This document shows positions 3,850 to 15,249 of a DNA stretch of 42,624 nt, in pieces. The DNA comes from a virus, in UHGV virus genome UHGV-0204464. One strand, given 5' to 3'. Below the pieces are notes generated by a model. That model saw only the letters and a list, made by a program, of their open reading frames with translations, was not told the DNA's origin and made no database searches. Made by a program: the position numbers and the translations under genes. Numbering within the stretch: position 1 is the first letter of the stretch; each line of letters opens with the position of its first letter.

Positions 3850-5972
3850 TGAAAGTAACTGCAAACGGTAAGACATTTACCTTCCCTGATGGTACGAGCA
3901 CCGAAGATATTGGCACCGCCATTGATGAGTATTTTGCTGGTCAGGCTGTTCAGCAACAAACAGTTAATCAGGCCAATAATGCACCAACACAGGAAGAACC
4001 ATCATTGATGCAACAAGCTGGCGATTGGCTCACTGGTGGTCAAAGTGCAGGGCAAATTGCAGAACAGGCTGGTCGTGGTCTGGTAAACATACCATTTGAC
4101 GTATTACAGGGTGGCGCAAGTCTGATTAATGCAATCAGTCAGGGGCTTGGTGGGCCAAAAGTATTGGATGATGTCTATCGTCCAGTCGATCGACCGACAG
4201 ACCATTACGCGCAAGCCGGTGAAACAATTGGCGGGTATCTCCTGCCAATTGGTACAGCGGCAAAAGCTGCTGGAGCGCCAGCAAAGCTCGCTGGAGATAT
4301 CGGTTCCGCAGGAAACATGATTGCAGGCTCTCTTGCTGATGCTGCAAATCAGGAGGGCGATTTTGCACAAAATGCTGCCATTAACGGTGGTATCAATATT
4401 GGTGCTCAAGGCGTTATTTCAGGTGCCGGGCGCGTTATTGCGCCAAGGGTTTCACAGGCTCTTGGTGGTGCAGCACTGAATTCTGCTAATGATGTTTCCA
4501 GGATGGCAAAGTCAGATGCTGGGCGTCAGTCAATTGCCAGTCAGGCCGCTAATGTGTCCGAAGATGTAGCAAAAGCAGCTGAGTCTGCTGGAATTGATAT
4601 AAACGCATTAACACCAGGAATGCGATCTGGAAGTCGTGGAATTGCACAAGCCGAAGGCGCATTGGCATCAACACCTGGAATTGTTCAGGACGCCCATCAG
4701 GCAGCATTTAACGAAATATCATCAAAGTTAAGTCGAAACCTTGATGAATTTGGGGCCACATCTGGAACGGCATCAGAAAAAAGTGCGGCTATAAAACAAA
4801 GGATTCTTCAAAATCTTGATCAGATGAAGGATGCCGAGCGCGCGGCATGGGATGACGTGCGGTCAACAATGCCAAATCAAAAAGCAAGAATGCTAAATGG
4901 TAATGCCGTTATTCAGGCAGAGCGATCTGCTGGCATACCGCTTACTCCTGAAATGAAACAGTTTGTTCAGGCAAACAATCAAGGTGGAGTAACATTTGAT
5001 GGCATGAAAGCATGGAGAGCGAAATTTGCTGATGCGGAGCAAAAATATAAGCGTAGCGGAGAGGCAAATGCGGCAAGGAGAGCAGGGGAAATACGCCGGG
5101 CAATTACTGATGATATGCGCACAATGGCGGAAAACGGCGGATTTCTTGATGACTGGCAGAAAGCTAATGATCTGTCTAAAGCGAGGTTATCAGCACAAGA
5201 GAGTGCAGAGTCTGTTTTCGGGCGTGATTTGGCAACAGATGCACTGATTACGAATGGAGTAAAATCCCTTCAATCATCGTCAGCTAAAGGTCTTAATGGT
5301 CCTGCTGGATTCCATTCTATGATCCGCGCGCTGCCAGAATCAGAGCGTGTTCCTGCTATATCATCAATGTTGCAAGATGCTATCTCGCATGGTGTACGTG
5401 GTGGCAAAGCTGATGCAGCAGGAATTAACCATATCGCAGAGATACTGACTCCACAAAATGTAAAAGCCATTAGCCGATATTCCTCAGAGCTTGGAAGAAT
5501 TGCTGATGCATATGGCACTCTTGCAAGAGCAGCAGTGAAACCTCAGCAGTATATTGAAAGAACAGGTAGAACTGCCAATGTACTACGCGATCTGGATGCT
5601 GGTTTATCCAACGTCACATCAACAGTGTTAAATGCAATTGCCAATTCAACATCAGGTGCCATTGTTGGTGGCGCTGGAGGAGGCATTGCAGGCGCTGCCG
5701 CAGGTGCTTTAGTTGGCGCTGGGTTAAAAGGCGCTGTATCTAAAATTGCCACCACACGTAGTGGTCGGTATGCGATAGAGAAAGCAGTTCAGGAAGCAAC
5801 TAAAGCAGTAAGAGCAGGCGGAAGCAAAGAAGCATTAGCGGCGGCGGAACGCAGATTTATGGCAAATAAGGCCGCCGTAAAAGCAATACGCGAGGCACTA
5901 GGAAACGAAGAGTTCCAGCGTTTAGCAAGGGCTGGAATTGTGGCATCGCTAAGCGGAATGGCACAGGAGTAA
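3846..5972 (+). CDS. Ejection protein, P22 gp16-like (longer variant)
   Basis: 708-aa ORF overlapping the previous stop; Ala/Gly-rich with Gly-rich hydrophobic segments near the C-terminus; synteny. Confidence 0.55.
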
Positions 5973-6377
5973 TTAGTCATCCATGGATGGATTGAGCTTA
6001 TCTCGTGTTGATGTGGCAATTTTCCCAACATTTTTCAACCAAGATTTTAAGAAGGATATGTCGTCCTTAATATCATGAATATCCTCATTCTTTATACGAT
6101 CAACCTTATCCTCTAAGCTCTCTATAGAACGCTCAATGCTAGACAGAGAGATTTTTAAGTCCCCTTGCTCACGTTCCAGTGAGGATTTGAGAGCACAATA
6201 TTCGTTTTCTAGAATTCCTATTTTTTTTGTTAGAGAGTGCATTCGATACTCATACACCAAACCAGAAACGACTAATGCAGCCAACAGAAACCATTCAAGC
6301 ACACCAACCTCCTTAGTTTTGCGCAGGATACCAGATGATAATGTGTAGTTGGAGTAGCGCGGTTGTAATGCAAGCAT
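5973..6377 (-). CDS. Membrane-anchored coiled-coil protein; candidate superinfection-exclusion moron (sieA position)
   Basis: 134-aa ORF antisense to the late operon; one TM-like segment (LEWFLLAALVVSGLV) followed by a heptad-rich coiled coil; AT-rich; start codon uncertain. Confidence 0.45.
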   Translation of the reverse strand: MLALQPRYSNYTLSSGILRKTKEVGVLEWFLLAALVVSGLVYEYRMHSLTKKIGILENEYCALKSSLEREQGDLKISLSSIERSIESLEDKVDRIKNEDIHDIKDDISFLKSWLKNVGKIATSTRDKLNPSMDD

Positions 6378-6436
6378 TTTGTTTTGGTTTTATGCTTGCT
6401 TGTATGTGTGTACAGTGCATATAATGCAAGCATACA
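6364..6436 (+). promoter_or_regulatory. Candidate regulated promoter with three ATGCAAGCAT-type repeats
   Basis: Repeat copies at about 6367-6376, 6393-6401 (inverted) and 6424-6433; TATAAT at 6418-6423 with TTGCTTG about 17 bp upstream; directly upstream of the 6459 ATG. Confidence 0.35.
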
Positions 6437-6458
6437 TCACAACAAAGGTGCTTGCATT

Positions 6459-7451
6459 ATGACTGAAAAGAAAAGTGGCGAAGGGAAAGCTAAGGGCGGT
6501 ATCGCTCGCGCAAAGTCGCTGACTAAAGAGCAGCGTTCTGAAATAGCAAAGAAAGCAGCGGCTGCAAGATGGAAGGATAAACCATTAATTGCTACGCATA
6601 AGGGATCGTTCCAGCATGAATTCGGGATTGATGTTGAGTGCTATGTGTTAAATGATGATAACAAAACTGCCGTTATTAGCCAGAGAGGCATGGGAGAAGC
6701 GATTGGTCTTGGCGAAGGTGGCAGCAGGTTGCCAAAGTTTATTCAGGGGAAAACTATTTCTCAGTATATCGGGCATGAATTAAGGGCAAAACTTGAAAAT
6801 CCTCTTATTTTTCAATACAAACAGGCGGGCACGAACACTCCAGCTAATCCTGTAATACATGGCTACGATGTAACAATATTAATTGATTTATGTCGAGCAA
6901 TCTCTAATGCTAAAGCTGAAGGTAAGTTGCTTTCCAGTCAGGAAGGGATTGCTAAGCAAGCCAGAATCATTATTGATGCATCAGCCAAGGCGGGCATTCA
7001 GGGGCTTGTTTATGCTTTGGCAGGGTATGACAGAACAAAAGAAGAGGTAATTCAAGCATATAAGCGATATGTTGCTGAAGAGGCTCGTGAGTATGAAAGA
7101 GAGTTCACCCCTGAACTTTATGAGCATTGGTATCGTCTGTATGGTATAGACAAACCAGTTAGAGGGCGACCATGGGCGTTTAAATATCTTACGATAGATC
7201 ACATTTATTACCCATTAGCCAGAAGTGAAGGAAAGGTATTTAATTTAGCAAAAACGTCAAAAGAAGAAAAAGGCAGCAAGAACGATAAAATACACCAGTT
7301 TTTATCAGAGGTTGGAGTTAAGGCTCTTAGAACCCAAATAGGTAAGGTTACTGGTATTGCAATGGTTTCTGATACTCGAGAAGAGTATGAGAAATACATA
7401 GATGAAAAGGTTATTGGACAAAGAACCATAGACTTAAAAGATAAAGAATAA
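6459..7451 (+). CDS. Hypothetical protein with Lys/Arg-rich N-terminal DNA-binding-like segment
   Basis: Long ORF; most plausible ATG at 6459 (MTEKKSGEGKAKGGIARAKSLTKEQRSEIAKKAAAARW); the track ORF starts earlier at 6384. Confidence 0.6.
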   Translation: MTEKKSGEGKAKGGIARAKSLTKEQRSEIAKKAAAARWKDKPLIATHKGSFQHEFGIDVECYVLNDDNKTAVISQRGMGEAIGLGEGGSRLPKFIQGKTISQYIGHELRAKLENPLIFQYKQAGTNTPANPVIHGYDVTILIDLCRAISNAKAEGKLLSSQEGIAKQARIIIDASAKAGIQGLVYALAGYDRTKEEVIQAYKRYVAEEAREYEREFTPELYEHWYRLYGIDKPVRGRPWAFKYLTIDHIYYPLARSEGKVFNLAKTSKEEKGSKNDKIHQFLSEVGVKALRTQIGKVTGIAMVSDTREEYEKYIDEKVIGQRTIDLKDKE

Positions 7452-7452
7452 G

Positions 7453-7479
7453 AAAAACCCACCGTCAGGTGGGTTTTTT
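7453..7479. terminator. Bidirectional rho-independent terminator
   Basis: AAAAACCCACC-GTCA-GGTGGGTTTTTT: 7-bp GC-rich stem flanked by A-run and T-run; sits between convergent genes. Confidence 0.7.
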
Positions 7480-7504
7480 ATAAGGAGTAATCATGATTTA
7501 CCCA

Positions 7505-8041
7505 TCAAACAACCCACCAGTTTGCCTGATTGGATACCAGCCTTGCAGTTTTTATGGAATTAATTATGCCATGCTCAAGAGCCTTGTTAGCATCCAAAAT
7601 GGTCGAGTCTGCTATCAGGGATGCCCACCTAATATGGGTTCCGATGTCGATATTGAACGTCTCAACGAAGCGATCAAGATCGTTATCGAGGCATTTCCCG
7701 TACTCTCTCAATCTGGCATGGTCGGCGGCTGGGGAGGCAAAGCACCATAATAGAGGATGTAACAGGAATCTTGATAATGGGTTTGCGAAACGTTCTGAGC
7801 CAGCCAGGAAAACGATATTAGCTATGGATTCAACATTGCTTATGTTGTGAGTTCTAACGGTAACAGGGAGTGACTTAAGAAAGTTATACGCAGTAAAGCC
7901 AGCGGCTGTTTCCCCTCCCTGACTTGATATATGGATATTTAATTCAGTTGCGCCTTGAGATAATGCGGTGAGACAGTGGTTCTGAAGTTGCCCAACAGTG
8001 GCAGTGTTAACGGGGCATAAGAAATGAATTGTGTGCAGCAT
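7505..8041 (-). CDS. ClpP-like (S14 family) serine peptidase homologue, translationally coupled to mnt
   Basis: 178 aa; by-eye alignment to ClpP core (IHISSQGGETAAGF vs INSPGG.ITAG; candidate Ser in NVESIAN and His in LLHPL); ATG overlaps the mnt stop (TAATG). Confidence 0.5.
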   Translation of the reverse strand: MLHTIHFLCPVNTATVGQLQNHCLTALSQGATELNIHISSQGGETAAGFTAYNFLKSLPVTVRTHNISNVESIANIVFLAGSERFANPLSRFLLHPLLWCFASPAADHARLREYGKCLDNDLDRFVETFNIDIGTHIRWASLIADSTILDANKALEHGIINSIKTARLVSNQANWWVV

Positions 8042-8295
8042 TATTTATCATCCTTGCCATAAATCTTTTTAAGTGTCTCAAACACAACGGCCTTGAACTG
8101 CTCTGCTTGCTGATCAGCCAAGCGTTCAGCTTCGTCTCGATAGCCTGCAATCGGTGATGGCTTTGAGAGAGCATCCTGAACGATTTGTAATAACTCAGAG
8201 TTCATTGACCTTCCGTTAGCCTCTGCTCTTAATTTCAATTTTTCTCTTACTTCCAAAGGCATACGGAAGTTAAAGTGCGGATCGTTTCTAGCCAT
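8041..8295 (-). CDS. mnt: Mnt repressor (ribbon-helix-helix), P22 immI
   Basis: 84-aa ORF MARNDPHFNFRMPLEVREKLKLRAEANGRSMNSELLQIVQDALSK closely matches my memory of P22 Mnt; divergent from arc. Confidence 0.85.
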   Translation of the reverse strand: MARNDPHFNFRMPLEVREKLKLRAEANGRSMNSELLQIVQDALSKPSPIAGYRDEAERLADQQAEQFKAVVFETLKKIYGKDDK

Positions 8296-8317
8296 GCCAT
8301 CACCCCAAGTTAGTGTA

Positions 8318-8346
8318 TTGACATGATAGAAGCACTCTACTATATT
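8318..8346 (+). promoter_or_regulatory. Pant promoter with Arc operator
   Basis: TTGACA (8318-8323), 17-bp spacer, TATATT (8341-8346); the spacer holds ATGATAGAAGCACTCTACTAT (8323-8343), matching the P22 arc operator as I remember it. Confidence 0.75.
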
Positions 8347-8350
8347 CTCA

Positions 8351-8371
8351 ATAGGTCCACGGTGGACCTAT
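8351..8371. promoter_or_regulatory. Mnt operator (Omnt) palindrome
   Basis: Perfect palindrome ATAGGTCCACGGTGGACCTAT between mnt and arc. Confidence 0.75.
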
Positions 8372-8385
8372 ATTGTGAGGTAAAT

Positions 8386-8544
8386 ATGAAAGGAATGAGC
8401 AAAATGCCGCAGTTCAATTTGCGGTGGCCTAAAGAAGTATTGGATTTGGTGCGTAAGGTGGCGGAAGAGAACGGGCGATCTGTTAACTCTGAGATTTACA
8501 AGCGAGTGTTGGACAGCCTGAAGAGAGAGGGGATAACGGTATGA
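8386..8544 (+). CDS. arc: Arc repressor (ribbon-helix-helix)
   Basis: MKGMSKMPQFNLRWPKEVLDLVRKVAEENGRSVNSEIYKRVLDSLKREG matches P22 Arc; the track ORF (from 8323) begins inside the operator, so the internal ATG at 8386 is used. Confidence 0.85.
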   Translation: MKGMSKMPQFNLRWPKEVLDLVRKVAEENGRSVNSEIYKRVLDSLKREGITV

Positions 8545-8762
8545 GGTTTATTGAGGTTGATGAGATTGGCTATGAGAATGCACTTGGTAGAGGTAAATCT
8601 TTAGTTAACATTGATGGCATTGAATCGATAAGGAGTGGTGAATTTACGGAGATCAGAATGATGTCAGGCGGAATCATTCCTTGCCGTGATTCAGTAGAGT
8701 CAATCAAATCAAAAATGAGTGGTCAGTGGCTTTATAGCTACAGTGACTTACAAAAACAGTGA
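8541..8762 (+). CDS. Hypothetical 73-aa protein inserted between arc and ant
   Basis: ATG overlaps arc stop (ATGA); no recognisable motif; fills the arc-ant spacer. Confidence 0.4.
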   Translation: MRFIEVDEIGYENALGRGKSLVNIDGIESIRSGEFTEIRMMSGGIIPCRDSVESIKSKMSGQWLYSYSDLQKQ

Positions 8763-8825
8763 AGCCCCAACTGCGGGAACAGTCAGGGCTTCGGTATCGT
8801 AAAACCACGCATAGGAATTAACGAC

Positions 8826-9749
8826 ATGACGAGTGTAGCAATTGCAGAACATACAATCAACGTTCCATTCCACGGAACAAATCTCTTTTTGGTCAGCATT
8901 AACAATGAACCTTACGTTCCTATGAAACCCGTTGTAGAAGGCATGGGTATGGTTTGGGCTGCTCAATTTGTTAAATTAAAACAGAGATTTGTCAAAGGTA
9001 TTTCGGAAATCGAAATACCTTCTGCTGGCGGTAAACAGTTAATGATATGCCTTGCCTTTCGTAAGTTTGCGGCTTGGCTTTCAAGCATTCAGCCAAACAA
9101 AGTCCGCCCTGAAATCCGCGACAAGGTAATCCAGTATCAGGAAGAGTGTGACGATGTGCTCTACGAGTACTGGACTAAAGGCCATGTGGTTAATCCACGC
9201 AAAGCTAAAAAGGCGTTGCCGGGGAAAATCACTACTGAACAGCAGGAAGCCATTAAACAACTCGTCATGAGTCGCGGTCAGTCTCTGCCAAAAGAAAAAC
9301 AGGCTAAGGCGATGATCACCATGTGGTCGTCACTGAAATCCCATTTTGGATGTTCGTACAAAGAAATCAGTGAGGAGCAGTTTACAGAAGCACTGTCACT
9401 TGCAGCTCGAGTTCCACTTGAAGGTGAGTTCATTGGCAAACAAGAAGAGTTACCAGCGCCAAAACTGGATATTAACTTCCCGATTTCATGGTTTGCTGAA
9501 AATGCACCTTACGCCATTATCAGGCAGCAATGCGGTGATACTGTTGCTCTTGACCGCAGCGCACTCGTTGAATGCAGTCCGGCGTATAAACTAATCAATA
9601 TTCTGACAAAAGCGGGGTATGACGTTTCAGCAGTAAGAGCTGAACTAAAAGCACTTCGCCATTTAATGGCTGAGCAAAGCTGGGCACTTAAAGAGATAGC
9701 TTCATTCGCAGCGATACGTGATAGAGCGTGCCACTCAATTAAACTTTAA
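8826..9749 (+). CDS. ant: Antirepressor Ant
   Basis: 307 aa; N-terminal AntA/KilA-N-like segment; position after mnt/arc; AGGA RBS. Confidence 0.8.
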   Translation: MTSVAIAEHTINVPFHGTNLFLVSINNEPYVPMKPVVEGMGMVWAAQFVKLKQRFVKGISEIEIPSAGGKQLMICLAFRKFAAWLSSIQPNKVRPEIRDKVIQYQEECDDVLYEYWTKGHVVNPRKAKKALPGKITTEQQEAIKQLVMSRGQSLPKEKQAKAMITMWSSLKSHFGCSYKEISEEQFTEALSLAARVPLEGEFIGKQEELPAPKLDINFPISWFAENAPYAIIRQQCGDTVALDRSALVECSPAYKLINILTKAGYDVSAVRAELKALRHLMAEQSWALKEIASFAAIRDRACHSIKL

Positions 9750-9790
9750 CTACCTGCACGAAAAGTGTAGGTCAATAACCAACGCAACGA

Positions 9791-9813
9791 CCCAGCTTCG
9801 GCTGGGTTTTTTT
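9791..9813 (+). terminator. Rho-independent terminator after ant
   Basis: CCCAGC-TTCG-GCTGGG hairpin followed by TTTTTTT. Confidence 0.7.
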
Positions 9814-9871
9814 ATGCCCAAAATTCACCGTAGCCATGCTGCGGCGATTCCTTGTGTCTGGAGCAAATTAA

Positions 9872-12817
9872 ATGAGAGACATTACAGCCAATGTGATCGT
9901 ATCGATGCCTTCGCAACTCTTCACTATGGCGCGTTCTTTTAAAGCCGTAGCTAATGGCAAAATTTATATCGGTAAAATTGACACAGATCCTGTAAATCCA
10001 GAAAACCAGATTCAGGTCTATGTGGAGAATGAAGACGGTTCTCACGTTCCTGTTTCGCAACCAATAATCATTAACGCTGCTGGATATCCTGTATATAACG
10101 GACAGATTGCCAAATTCGTTACCGTGCAAGGCCATTCTATGGCTGTTTATGATGCGTATGGTGCGCAGCAGTTCTATTTTCCTAATGTGCTGAAGTATGA
10201 CCCTGATCAGTTACGGCAGCAATTAGAAGACCCAGATGGAGCGAATAAATACCCAAAACTTCAGATAGCAAGATGGAGAGACAGTTATGATGTAAGAGGT
10301 TGGGGGGCTATTGGTGATGGTGTTCATGATGATACATCAGCTCTATCAGAATTACTTTCTGTTGCAACAGGTGGTGAAAAGATAGATGGGCGAGGGCTTA
10401 CTTTTAAAGTATCAACTCTTCCAGATGTCAGTCGATTTAAAAATGCTCGTTTTTTATTTGAGAGAATACCGGGTCAGCCTCTTTTTTATGCTTCTGAAGA
10501 TTTTATCCAGGGAGAGTTATTTAAAATTACAGATACACCGTGGTACAACGCCTGGACGCAGGATAAAACGTTTGTATATGACAATGTCATCTATGCGCCT
10601 TTTATGGCTGGAGACCGCCATGGTGTAAATAACCTCCATGTTGCATGGGTTCGCTCAGGAGATGACGGGAAGACCTGGACAACGCCGGAATGGCTTACAG
10701 ATTTACATAAAAACTATCCCACAGTTAACTATCACTGCATGAGTATGGGGGTTGTCAGAAATCGCCTTTTTGCTGTAATTGAGACGCGGACCGTGAGAGG
10801 AAATAAACTGCAGGTTGCAGAGTTGTGGGATCGCCCAATGAGTCGCAGCCTTCGCGTTTATGGTGGTATAACGAAAGCAGCAAATCAGCAAGTCGCTTAT
10901 ATTCGCATTACTGATCACGGATTATTTGCTGGTGATTTTGTCAACTTCTCAAACTCTGGTGTTACAGATGTTACCGGGAATATGACGGTGACTACTGTTA
11001 TTGATAAAAATACCTTTACAGTTACGACGCAAAATACCCAGGATGTGGATCAGAATAACGAGGGTAGATACTGGAGTTTTGGTACATCATTTCACTCGTC
11101 ACCATGGAGAAAAACCAGTCTTGGAACTATTCCTTCTTTTGTTGACGGAAGCACTCCTGTTACTGAGATTCACAGTTTTGCGACGATTAGCGATAACAGT
11201 TTTGCTGTTGGCTACCATAATGGTGATATTGGTCCACGCGAGCTTGGGATACTCTATTTCTCTGATGCTTTCGGTTCTCCTGGTAGCTTTGTTCGCAGAC
11301 GCATACCTGCAGAATATGAGGCGAATGCATCTGAGCCATGTGTAAAATATTATGATGGCATTCTGTATCTGACGACCAGGGGGACATTAAGTACTCAACC
11401 CGGTAGTTCATTGCACAGAAGCTCTGATTTAGGTACATCATGGAATTCTCTTCGCTTCCCAAATAATGTTCATCACTCAAACCTTCCTTTTGCCAAAGTT
11501 GGCGATGAGCTGATTATTTTTGGCAGTGAGCGCACATTTGGTGAGTGGGAAGGAGGAGAACCTGATAACCGTTATGCAGGAAATTATCCAAGAACATTTA
11601 TGACCAGAGTTAACGTCAATGAGTGGAGTCTGGATAATGTAGAGTGGGTTAATGTTACTGATCAGATTTATCAGGGCGGAATAGTTAACTCTGCGGTTGG
11701 TGTTGGTTCAGTTTGTATCAAAGACAACTGGCTGTACTACATTTTCGGTGGGGAAGACTTTCTAAACCCATGGAGCATAGGGGATAACAACAGAAAATAT
11801 CCTTATGTTCACGATGGTCACCCGGCTGATTTGTATTGTTTCAGGGTGAAAATTAAACAGGAAGAATTTGTTTCAAGGGATTTTGTCTACGGAGCCACTC
11901 CTAACAGAACGCTTCCTACTTTTATGTCGACGTCAGGCGTGAGGACGGTTCCTGTACCCGTTGATTTCACAGATGATGTTGCCGTCCAGTCACTGACTGT
12001 CCATGCAGGTACATCAGGACAAGTTCGCGCGGAAGTCAAACTTGAGGGTAATTACGCCATTATTGCGAAGAAAGTACCGTCTGATGATGTTACCGCTCAG
12101 AGATTAATCGTTAGCGGCGGTGAAACAACGTCTTCAGCAGATGGTGCAATGATAACGTTGCATGGTTCCAGAAGCAGTACTCCACGTCGCGCGGTATATA
12201 ACGCACTCGAACATCTTTTTGAGAACGGAGATGTTAAACCTTATCTTGATAATGTAAATGCTCTTGGTGGTCCGGGAAACAGGTTCTCGACAGTTTATCT
12301 TGGCTCCAATCCTGTGGTTACCAGTGACGGAACATTAAAGACAGAGCCGGTCTCTCCTGACGAAACATTGCTGGATGCCTGGGGTGACGTCAGGTATATC
12401 GCTTATAAATGGCTGAACGCTGTCGCTATAAAGGGGGAAGAAGGGGCGAGGATACATCATGGTGTAATCGCGCAGCAACTTCGTGATGTTCTTATTTCTC
12501 ACGGACTCATGGAAGAAGAAAGCACAACATGCCGCTATGCGTTTCTTTGCTATGACGATTATCCCGCAGTATATGATGACGTCATTACTGGCCAAAGGGA
12601 AATGCCGCTGACTGATAATGACGGGAGCATCATTGTTGATGAGGATGATAATCCAGTGATGGTAATGGAAGACATCATTGAGCGCGTTGAAATAACGCCA
12701 GCAGGATCTAGATGGGGGGTCAGGCCTGATCTCTTATTCTATATCGAGGCGGCATGGCAGCGCAGAGAAATGGATAAGATAAAAGCTAGGTTAGACTTAA
12801 TAGAAGGGAAGCACTAA
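9872..12817 (+). CDS. Chimeric tailspike: P22-type head-binding N-terminus fused to sialidase/endosialidase-like domain with C-terminal autochaperone-like segment
   Basis: 981 aa; first ~115 aa ([45 protein letters not shown]) match the P22 gp9 N-terminus; Asp-box motifs SGDDGKTW and SSDLGTSW; C-terminal HHGVIAQQL region resembles endosialidase/T5 pb1-type intramolecular chaperone domains. Confidence 0.8.
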
Positions 12818-12962
12818 ATGTTTCGTTGGCGTCAAAAATATGAACTGCTCACATAAAGAAGTAAGTACATTGGCAAAAAACATTGACGTCAACGAAATTA
12901 AATATAAAACATCATGCAGACATATTACCAATATTAATATAAGGTAATAAAAATATAATTTA

Positions 12963-12990
12963 CAAAAAAGGCCCGTTGGAAGCGACGGGC
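12963..12990 (-). terminator. Candidate minus-strand rho-independent terminator
   Basis: GCCCGT..ACGGGC hairpin (12971-12990) with a T-run on the minus strand (plus AAAAAAG 12964-12970). Confidence 0.3.
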
Positions 12991-13244
12991 ATTAACCGCG
13001 GTAATGGATAAATTATTAATGTTTTTAGATTGTGAACGATATCATATTGTGCGGAAGTAGTGAAGTAACCATGTAAAATGATTGTTTCATAGCCTATGAG
13101 ACACACAAGGCTTTGTGCTCTTCGATAGTTGTTAAGGCGGATCACTCTACCTTCTCATCAATCCAGTCCGCCCCCACTGCATCATTTCTCTGCGCTTATC
13201 GAGATACTGAGCATGGTTGTAAATTCAACTAACCCAGTTCGTTG

Positions 13245-14904: not shown

Positions 14905-15249
14905 TTAGTCCTTGCGTAGCTCGCTGATTCTTCTGTAAGTCTCTGGTGCTTTGTTTCCGTGTATCTTCATTTCAAACTTCAACAGAGCAACGAGAGAATC
15001 CCATTCGTTGAGGATGCCTTTGAATGCCGGAACGCGCTTTGCAACCTTGTCGAATGAATCTCTGATTTCTGGAATCTGCTCAACAAGTGCAACGCATCGC
15101 CGGAAGTCTGCTGCGTCATGTGGAGCGCCGAAGTGATGACCATAGATATTTTTTTTCAGTCCACATGCGATTGAGGCAAGAGTTGCGCTACTGATGCCGA
15201 CATCGCCAGTTGATTGCCATTTCAAAACCTTCATAGCCAAATCTGACAT
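14905..15249 (-). CDS. Hypothetical early-left protein
   Basis: ORF with GGAGA RBS before the ATG at 15249 (MSDLAMKVLKW...). Confidence 0.5.
   Translation of the reverse strand: MSDLAMKVLKWQSTGDVGISSATLASIACGLKKNIYGHHFGAPHDAADFRRCVALVEQIPEIRDSFDKVAKRVPAFKGILNEWDSLVALLKFEMKIHGNKAPETYRRISELRKD

Follow-up and report, generated by a model that had tools for sequence, protein, structure and literature searches.

We analyzed a 42,624-nucleotide (nt) stretch of viral DNA (UHGV virus genome UHGV-0204464; hereafter the window, meaning this whole stretch) in which positions 7500 to 9900 form a P22-type immI region, flanked by a DNA-transfer gene (gene-16) and a tailspike gene. The subject of this study is ORF73, an open reading frame (ORF) of 73 codons located in this region between arc and the antirepressor gene ant. 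The region is organized as in P22: it runs from mnt and a pair of overlapping, divergent promoters through arc and the antisense RNA sar, which has its own terminator and promoter, to ant and a terminator (Table 1). The promoter scan returned a Pant-like site (TTGACA-17-TATATT) on the plus strand at 8318 to 8346 and a Pmnt-like site (TTGAGA-17-TATCAT) on the minus strand at 8351 to 8323, and positions 8300 to 8524 share 92% DNA identity with the annotated Pant/Pmnt/arc-operator/arc region of P22. The window differs from P22 in that an extra cistron, ORF73, is present between arc and the sar terminator and in that the 5' half of sar and the N terminus of Ant represent another allele.

Table 1. 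Predicted features of the immI region and its right flank; positions are those of the window.
Feature	Position	Strand	Remarks
ClpP-like ORF	7505-8041	-	178 amino acids (aa)
mnt repressor gene	8041..8295	-	84 aa; Pfam Arc 94.5 bits and Repressor_Mnt 46.1 bits; position of P22 mnt
Overlapping divergent Pant (+) and Pmnt (-) promoters with operator region	8318..8351	both	promoter scan
arc, P22 type	8386..8544	+	52 aa; Pfam Arc 91.9 bits
Left slot boundary TGGACAGCCTGAAGAGAGAGGGGATAACGGTATGA	8510..8544	+	Arc tail, Shine-Dalgarno-like GAGGGG, ATGA
ORF73	8541..8762	+	73 aa; ATG overlaps the arc stop as ATGA, 8541-8544
sar intrinsic terminator	8751..8792	-	stem-loop 8792-8761 and U-tract ACUGUUUUUG (8760-8751)
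sar antisense RNA	8758..8824	-	Rfam RF00262
ant antirepressor gene	8826..9749	+	307 aa; Pfam P22_AR_N 136.3 bits; PHROG 524/245 anti-repressor Ant
Psar-like promoter	8832..8860	-	within ant codons 3-12; position of P22 Psar
Intrinsic terminator 3' of ant	9789..9808	+	terminator scan; position of the P22 ant terminator
Tailspike gene	9872-12817	+	981 aa; P22-type head-binding and endosialidase domains

The gap between arc and ant measures 281 nt (8545 to 8825) in the window versus 68 nt in P22 (BK000583; arc end at 15022, ant start at 15091). In a five-way alignment that also included epsilon34, Emek, and 611R6 (alignment A1), P22 and epsilon34 lack positions 8525 to 8760 and share both flanks, and the C-terminal residues of Arc are swapped (..DSLKREGITV in the window versus ..ESFKKEGRIGA in P22). 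A preliminary description of this DNA had drawn attention to a 73-residue ORF coupled to arc by an ATGA and to a GAAGCCC..GGGCTTC hairpin in front of ant. All of these elements are present in the sequence, and the comparison of arc-ant spacing proposed there confirmed the extra sequence. Because the 281-nt gap holds ORF73 and the arc stop codon does not abut the sar terminator, the window represents a variant of the P22-type immI module.

Judging from its sequence, ORF73 is a genuine small protein-coding gene that, compared with P22 and epsilon34, has been inserted in the arc-ant interval. Its full length is covered by a match to PHROG 11805 (E value of 2.8e-53, residues 1 to 73 on profile positions 1 to 73 of 73). 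Its product shows 100% amino acid identity to orf73 (AFM54340) of Salmonella phage vB_SemP_Emek and 96% to URC09203 of Escherichia phage vB_EcoP-611R6. In each of these two phages the gene occupies the same position between arc and ant, with the same ATGA overlap with arc, and the records name its product a hypothetical protein. The sar segment was present in 289 of 5426 complete Escherichia coli genomes, and a hypothetical protein of the Prokaryotic Genome Annotation Pipeline (PGAP) corresponding to ORF73 was found in 51 of the 5426, being an annotated coding sequence in all 51 carriers. The proposal that a small gene had been inserted therefore holds, but this gene is not unrecognized, since GenBank, PGAP, and PHROG 11805 all list it.

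The frame was intact in all 29 related loci, which represent eight nucleotide alleles with pairwise ratios of nonsynonymous to synonymous polymorphism (pN/pS) of 0 to 0.85, most of them 0.1 to 0.6. A distant homolog, P0008 (84 aa, locus L029), shares 65% identity with ORF73. The ratio of nonsynonymous to synonymous substitution rates (dN/dS) between the two is 0.21, at a dS of ~1.2, and their single length difference is an in-frame 33-nt indel in a loop of the predicted model. The contig encoding P0008 carries a mnt-like gene, arc, an ORF with a GTGA overlap, and sar, in the same order as in the window. The five remaining frames of the ORF73 region are closed, with 3 to 13 stop codons each. 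One could nevertheless suppose that ORF73 is a chance open frame in a noncoding arc-ant spacer or leader, of which the RNA or the spacing matters rather than the protein. Its shortness, its AT richness (GC content of 38.7% versus 46.5% for the window), and the lack of any Pfam or NCBIfam family above threshold would be in line with this. However, the substitution pattern, that is, the dN/dS, the in-frame indel, and the closed alternative frames, effectively refutes this idea. It is further contradicted by a frame that is intact in every locus and genome seen, by an arc overlap that is kept as either ATGA or GTGA, and by the full-length match to a PHROG family, so that we regard a chance frame as extremely improbable.

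The ORF73 family is very small. An exhaustive phmmer search of 1.84 billion representatives returned a single true relative beyond close copies, P0008, which is itself a singleton; a further match, P0009, was discarded as a spurious repeat protein. A word-indexed homolog search yielded just proteins of >90% identity and fragments. No relative was found in the species-representative genome contigs searched, scans of NCBIfam and PADLOC gave no match, and among solved structures searched by sequence the only match was a meaningless one with an E value of 0.063. Likewise, the literature on the epsilon34 "ant moron," phage L, Emek, and accessory-gene screens contained no description of ORF73 or of any arc-ant gene.

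The preliminary description had placed the ORF where sar normally lies and had envisaged that the control of ant by sar could be rearranged. Neither point was borne out. ORF73 sits between arc and the sar terminator, and a complete sar was identified on the minus strand, matching model positions 1 to 68 of 68 of its Rfam family with 76.6 bits (gathering threshold, 43 bits; E value of 9.9e-16). This minus-strand segment folds into two hairpins (z score of -5.35) with an exposed anti-Shine-Dalgarno UUCCU. sar is complementary to the ant leader, and the ribosome-binding site of ant (AGGA, 8813 to 8816) falls within it.

The inverted repeat GAAGCCCCAACTG..CAGTCAGGGCTTC at 8761 to 8792, which shares its first two bases with the end of the ORF73 TGA, is the predicted terminator of sar. 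The terminator scan found 14 uninterrupted base pairs on the minus strand followed by the tail ACTGTTTTTG, and the U-tract is the complement of the final ORF73 codons (..Q K Q stop). The hairpin has a folding energy of -23.4 kcal/mol on the minus strand versus -18.4 kcal/mol on the plus strand, where C-A mismatches replace two G-U pairs of the sar strand and interrupt the stem. We also considered the hairpin as a plus-strand attenuator ahead of ant and ruled this out, since on the plus strand it is not followed by a U-run and carries the two C-A mismatches. The stem is invariant among P22, epsilon34, Emek, 611R6, and the window (alignment A1). Given this invariance and the lack of positions 8525 to 8760 in P22 and epsilon34, the ORF was inserted upstream of sar and did not replace it.

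The region around 8826 to 8870 had been proposed for a search for antisense promoter signals, and a putative Psar was indeed found there, with a -35 element TTGATT (8860 to 8855), a 17-bp spacer, and a -10 element TACACT (8837 to 8832), at the same position as the annotated Psar of P22. This site was not called by the promoter scanner because it scores 8 of 12, below the threshold of 9 of this consensus scanner. The motif TTGCTA(T/C)ACT recurs across most of the ant alleles and types examined. In the window (8826 to 8840) and in related loci, highly different ant alleles all start with M-x-S-(I/V/L)-A; Psar appears to constrain the N terminus of Ant, because these codons complement the Psar -10 element (TTGCTATACT).

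That the insertion abolished or rearranged the control of ant by sar could be argued from an arc-ant distance four times that of P22 and from a -10 element reading TACACT instead of the TATACT of P22. Against this, sar is complete, its U-tract is better than that of P22 sar, and its position relative to the ribosome-binding site and start codon of ant is as in P22. In addition, the sequences of sar and of the ant leader are identical to those of CUS-3, and sar is kept in all 20 other loci that carry ORF73 (58.8 to 88.4 bits). We thus give such a rearrangement hardly any credence. Nothing suggests an altered control of ant by sar, which, by homology, would work exactly as in P22.

We then scanned IMG/VR for the sar terminator stem, which gave at least 120 loci (L030 to L149), 111 of them with enough upstream sequence; all counts that follow are among the matches listed. 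In 58 of these 111 loci Arc ends at the sar stem, with a P22-like or another tail, and ~43 (about 40%) have a small ORF that separates arc from the stem. At least nine unrelated types of such small ORFs, hereafter cargos, were found at this junction. They comprise a 67-aa Cys-rich protein (14 intact and 4 frameshifted copies; PHROG 7150), a 57-aa protein (8 copies; PHROG 17642), ORF73 itself (6 copies), and a predicted 89-aa membrane protein with an N-terminal stretch that is hydrophobic by eye (5 copies; PHROG 27312). Cys-rich cargos of 74, 61, and 63 aa (2, 1, and 1 copies) gave weak ClpX zinc-finger matches, and a 60-aa cargo (L085; one copy plus a truncated one) matched Pfam zf-C4_ClpX with 43 bits (threshold, 27 bits). 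An 80-aa cargo (L072; one copy) matched FlbD with an E value of 1.7e-4 and, in hhalign, with a probability of 90% against an FlbD profile.

Both joints of this slot are conserved. At the left joint, every cargo is preceded by nearly the same block of ~35 nt (TGGACAGCCTGAAGAGAGAGGGGATAACGGT, with a few base differences), which comprises the Arc tail and GAGGGG and follows at least three Arc families. In the window, this Shine-Dalgarno-like element is found at 8527 to 8532, inside the last arc codons and 8 nt upstream of the ORF73 ATG. The start codon of every cargo overlaps the arc stop codon, as either ATGA or GTGA. At the right joint, every cargo ends in a TGA that reaches two bases into the sar stem, and an A-rich run complementary to the sar U-tract precedes this TGA; because of this complementarity, the final residues of the cargos (K/Q/S/R) are dictated by the sar terminator. 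The Arc tail DSLK(R/K)EG.. is present in all cargo loci but in none of the 58 loci where arc abuts sar. All ORF73 loci encode an Arc ending in ..DSLKREG(I/V)(T/A)(V/A), across P22-like, 611R6-like, and CUS-3-like Arc families, and ORF73 is paired with five Ant N-terminal types, some of which are annotated by PGAP as BRO-N domain proteins. We consider it likely that ORF73 is a genuine small gene occupying a precisely bounded, exchangeable cargo slot of immI, bordered by arc on one side and by the sar terminator on the other. Together with the arc tail, the cargo probably forms a mosaic block that is swapped by recombination between the conserved left joint and sar. This shared architecture and the repertoire of cargos seem undescribed in the literature searched.

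Several loci deviate from this scheme. Four of the 18 copies of the 67-aa cargo (L077, L101, L127, and L147) have an extra T in a T-run near codons 6 to 8 (TGTTGTTTTTTGCGG), and the resulting frameshift disconnects the start of the ORF from the arc stop codon; these copies could be pseudogenes or reflect a slippage-prone tract. Two other loci, L055 and L093, encode a cargo-type Arc tail (DSLRREGITV). They were considered as empty slots and rejected as such, the 33 nt preceding the sar stem being an in-frame 12-codon remnant of the 57-aa cargo; cargos can therefore decay in place. In four loci (L079, L116, L119, and L136), a promoter-like TTGACAT.. with an operator-like palindrome immediately precedes the sar stem, and no arc ORF separates the two; their ant operon seems to be of a type that lacks arc. 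In E. coli MS 196-1 (NZ_CP146681; H150), the annotation places a "YlcI/YnfO family protein" under or beside the sar segment, and this may be another cargo type of E. coli prophages.

A close relative of the window is phage CUS-3, which is 96% identical to positions 5000 to 13000 of the window over 65% of this region and encodes the same 981-aa endosialidase tailspike. Its slot harbors a different Arc type and the 67-aa Cys-rich cargo instead of ORF73. In the CUS-3 record (CP000711, 6505 to 6986; L150), the Arc-family gene, the 67-aa cargo, and sar are covered by just the label "bsq2; boundary sequence." CUS-3 has been reported to seemingly lack arc (PMC2629481), a remark that is explained by arc and the cargo being left unannotated under this label.

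The protein encoded by ORF73 (8.3 kDa) is predicted to be soluble and acidic, with an isoelectric point (pI) of 5.0 and a net charge of -2.5. Its AlphaFold2 (AF2) model, obtained from an alignment of six sequences, has a mean predicted local distance difference test (pLDDT) score of 81.6 and consists of five strands, a nine-residue helix (residues 52 to 60), and a short C-terminal helix; strands 27 to 32 and 36 to 40 are joined by a 3-residue turn, with no helix. In BFVD, this model best matched small phage proteins that carry the name "Flagellar and swarming motility protein" (template modeling [TM] scores of 0.6 to 0.8). By sequence, ORF73 scored 14.6 bits against Pfam FlbD (PF06289; E value of 0.025), below the gathering threshold of 24.7 bits, and matched PHROG 8458 ("flagellar protein") with an E value of 0.09. 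ORF73 resembles the FlbD/SwrD family in size, in the order of the secondary structure elements in its partly confident model (beta strands first, then a helix), and in the shared motif T-x-I-x(3)-(S/N)-G-x(2)-(I/V)-x(3)-(D/E)-S-(V/I)-E. Unlike members of this family, it falls below the family threshold, its gene lies outside a flagellar operon, and it lacks the invariant TPDT motif, the aligned residues being S-G-E-F-T (alignment A3). A consensus-like FlbD probe found no match in the PDB set, which does not contain SwrD.

SwrD is reported to form hexameric rings and to have a RemA-/LytTR-like fold but to lack the DNA-binding insertion of RemA, a helical segment that joins strands 3 and 4 and bears the DNA-binding residues Arg51 and Arg53 (PMC13232269, a 2026 preprint). 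ORF73 differs from RemA (DUF370, a ring-forming biofilm regulator of Bacillus and Geobacillus) and from LytTR proteins in that identity is at most 21%, with no Pfam match to either, including LytTR, and it further differs from RemA in being acidic and, in its model, in lacking the DNA-binding insertion. From the model, ORF73 is possibly a very diverged small beta protein of the SwrD/FlbD/RemA type, whose characterized members assemble into rings; we count it in none of those families.

In P22, Mnt represses the strong promoter Pant in lysogens, and Arc shuts it a few minutes into an infection; late-promoter transcripts also extend through the region, and sar blocks the translation of ant (PMC2629481, PMC12111858). 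The scan detected no promoter-like site on the plus strand between 8386 and 8541. With Pant, arc, ORF73, and ant in this order and sar antisense between ORF73 and ant, translation of ORF73 would be coupled to that of arc through the ATGA overlap and the embedded GAGGGG. ORF73 would then be made from the Pant transcript, in a brief burst after infection or derepression that is ended by Arc, and Mnt would silence Pant in lysogens. Since ORF73 has no plus-strand promoter-like site of its own and would be coupled to arc, it is expected to appear together with Arc in this early pulse. It would probably also be translated from late-operon read-through, in which sar would block ant only.

In being present or absent among close relatives, in its lower GC content, and in its conserved joints, ORF73 resembles lambdoid morons and the "ant moron" (PMC2629481); P22 and epsilon34 lack it, and CUS-3 has another cargo in its place. 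However, a classical moron carries its own promoter and terminator, and ORF73 has neither; it is predicted to be coupled to arc and shares its 3' end with the sar terminator, the lone terminator detected there by the scan and one in the opposite orientation. The architecture is also analogous to that of acr-aca loci, where a strong early promoter, shut by a small repressor of the same operon, lies beside small variable genes. Unlike in acr-aca loci, the repressor of immI is a ribbon-helix-helix protein and is encoded upstream of the variable gene. To our knowledge, no anti-defense activity has been assigned to any cargo of the slot.

As to function, we tentatively favor, with less than even confidence, an accessory infection-phase protein that would bind a host or phage protein, in counter-defense or host takeover, over a DNA-binding regulator. 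This guess is founded on the inferred infection-phase expression, the small size, low GC content, and narrow distribution of the gene, and the many alternates found beside a pulse-generating autorepressor. Since unrelated cargos interchange and ORF73 is combined freely with different Arc and Ant types, its function is unlikely to depend on any single Arc, operator, or Ant sequence. More broadly, and more doubtfully, the arc-sar junction may be a dedicated slot for exchangeable immediate-early effectors, slaved to Arc and pulsed at the start of infection, with cargos acting as counter-defense, host-proteolysis, or host-takeover factors. ORF73 could then be a ring-forming SwrD-like protein, and its alternates could be ClpX zinc-finger mimics, FlbD-like proteins, and a small membrane protein. 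Several points weigh against these interpretations. Just two of the five AF2 models of ORF73 are confident, and the underlying alignment of six sequences is shallow; the model of the homolog P0008 has a low pLDDT of 41 and therefore lends no independent support to the fold. Foldseek gave nothing better than an E value of 0.7 for the ORF73 model against the PDB, and hhalign of ORF73 against a 40-sequence FlbD alignment yielded P = 0.012 and a probability of 3.6%. The family being tiny, with one distant relative, no function can be transferred from relatives, and the coupling and timing of ORF73 rest on homology with P22. Regarding counter-defense, PADLOC and NCBIfam gave no matches, and no literature was found on ORF73. 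Finally, the ~40% occupancy of the slot derives from the matches listed, in a collection rich in near-identical prophages.

The model and the genetic company of ORF73 also bear on other functions. A RemA-/LytTR-like fold would suit a third DNA- or RNA-binding immunity regulator, acting, e.g., on Pant, Pmnt, Psar, or immC promoters. Direct DNA binding is disfavored, however, by the acidity of ORF73 and by the lack of the RemA insertion, three residues instead of an Arg-bearing helix separating strands 3 and 4 in the model, and no LytTR match supports such a role. Because ORF73 also assorts with three Arc/operator families and is replaced in the slot by unrelated proteins, we find a regulator of this kind improbable. 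The same promiscuity speaks against ORF73 acting on the Ant or Arc protein as a chaperone, an antagonist, or an antirepressor specificity factor: at least five Ant N-terminal types (including BRO-N) and three Arc families accompany it, about 60% of the immI loci among the matches listed have no cargo, and the alternative cargos are structurally unrelated. Such a partner role would agree with the finding of ORF73 between arc and ant only and with its presumed coexpression with both, and we hold it to be quite improbable. A true FlbD/SwrD homolog aimed at the host flagellar motor would account for the Pfam and PHROG 8458 matches, for the FlbD-named BFVD matches (TM scores up to 0.7 to 0.8), and for the clearer FlbD-like cargo in the same slot of L072. 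Yet the Pfam score is well short of its threshold, TPDT is absent, and the hhalign probability is low. Moreover, we know of no FlbD in the flagellar operons of E. coli and Salmonella, and P22-like phages adsorb to O-antigen or capsule, not to flagella. A flagellar target is thus very unlikely, and an accessory effector remains our preferred, if tentative, reading.

Two neighbors of the module deserve mention. The ClpP-like ORF (Pfam CLP_protease, E value of 2e-11; PHROG head maturation protease) is the neighbor of mnt in the "ant moron," a variable region remote from the head genes; this position is curious in that ClpX-zinc-finger-like cargos fill the neighboring slot in related phages. In the 981-aa tailspike, a head-binding domain of the P22 type is joined to End_beta_propel (770 bits), End_tail_spike, and a Peptidase_S74 chaperone. 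On account of these endosialidase domains, the window belongs to a phage or prophage that resembles CUS-3 and is specific for the K1 capsule.

For the window alone the result is modest: ORF73 is real but is a catalogued hypothetical gene, and the regulation of ant by sar appears normal. For the family, the P22 immI region is a textbook module consisting of Arc, Mnt, sar, and Ant, to which a sizeable share of relatives add an interchangeable third cistron. The slot explains gaps in annotation, such as the unannotated arc and cargo of CUS-3, and its fixed joints make it a simple target for searches of further genomes. The cargo cistron is thus an unstudied component of a classic circuit and provides a ready set of small candidate effectors. 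If the slot does deliver effectors, this would connect the immI region with a class of function not associated with it so far.

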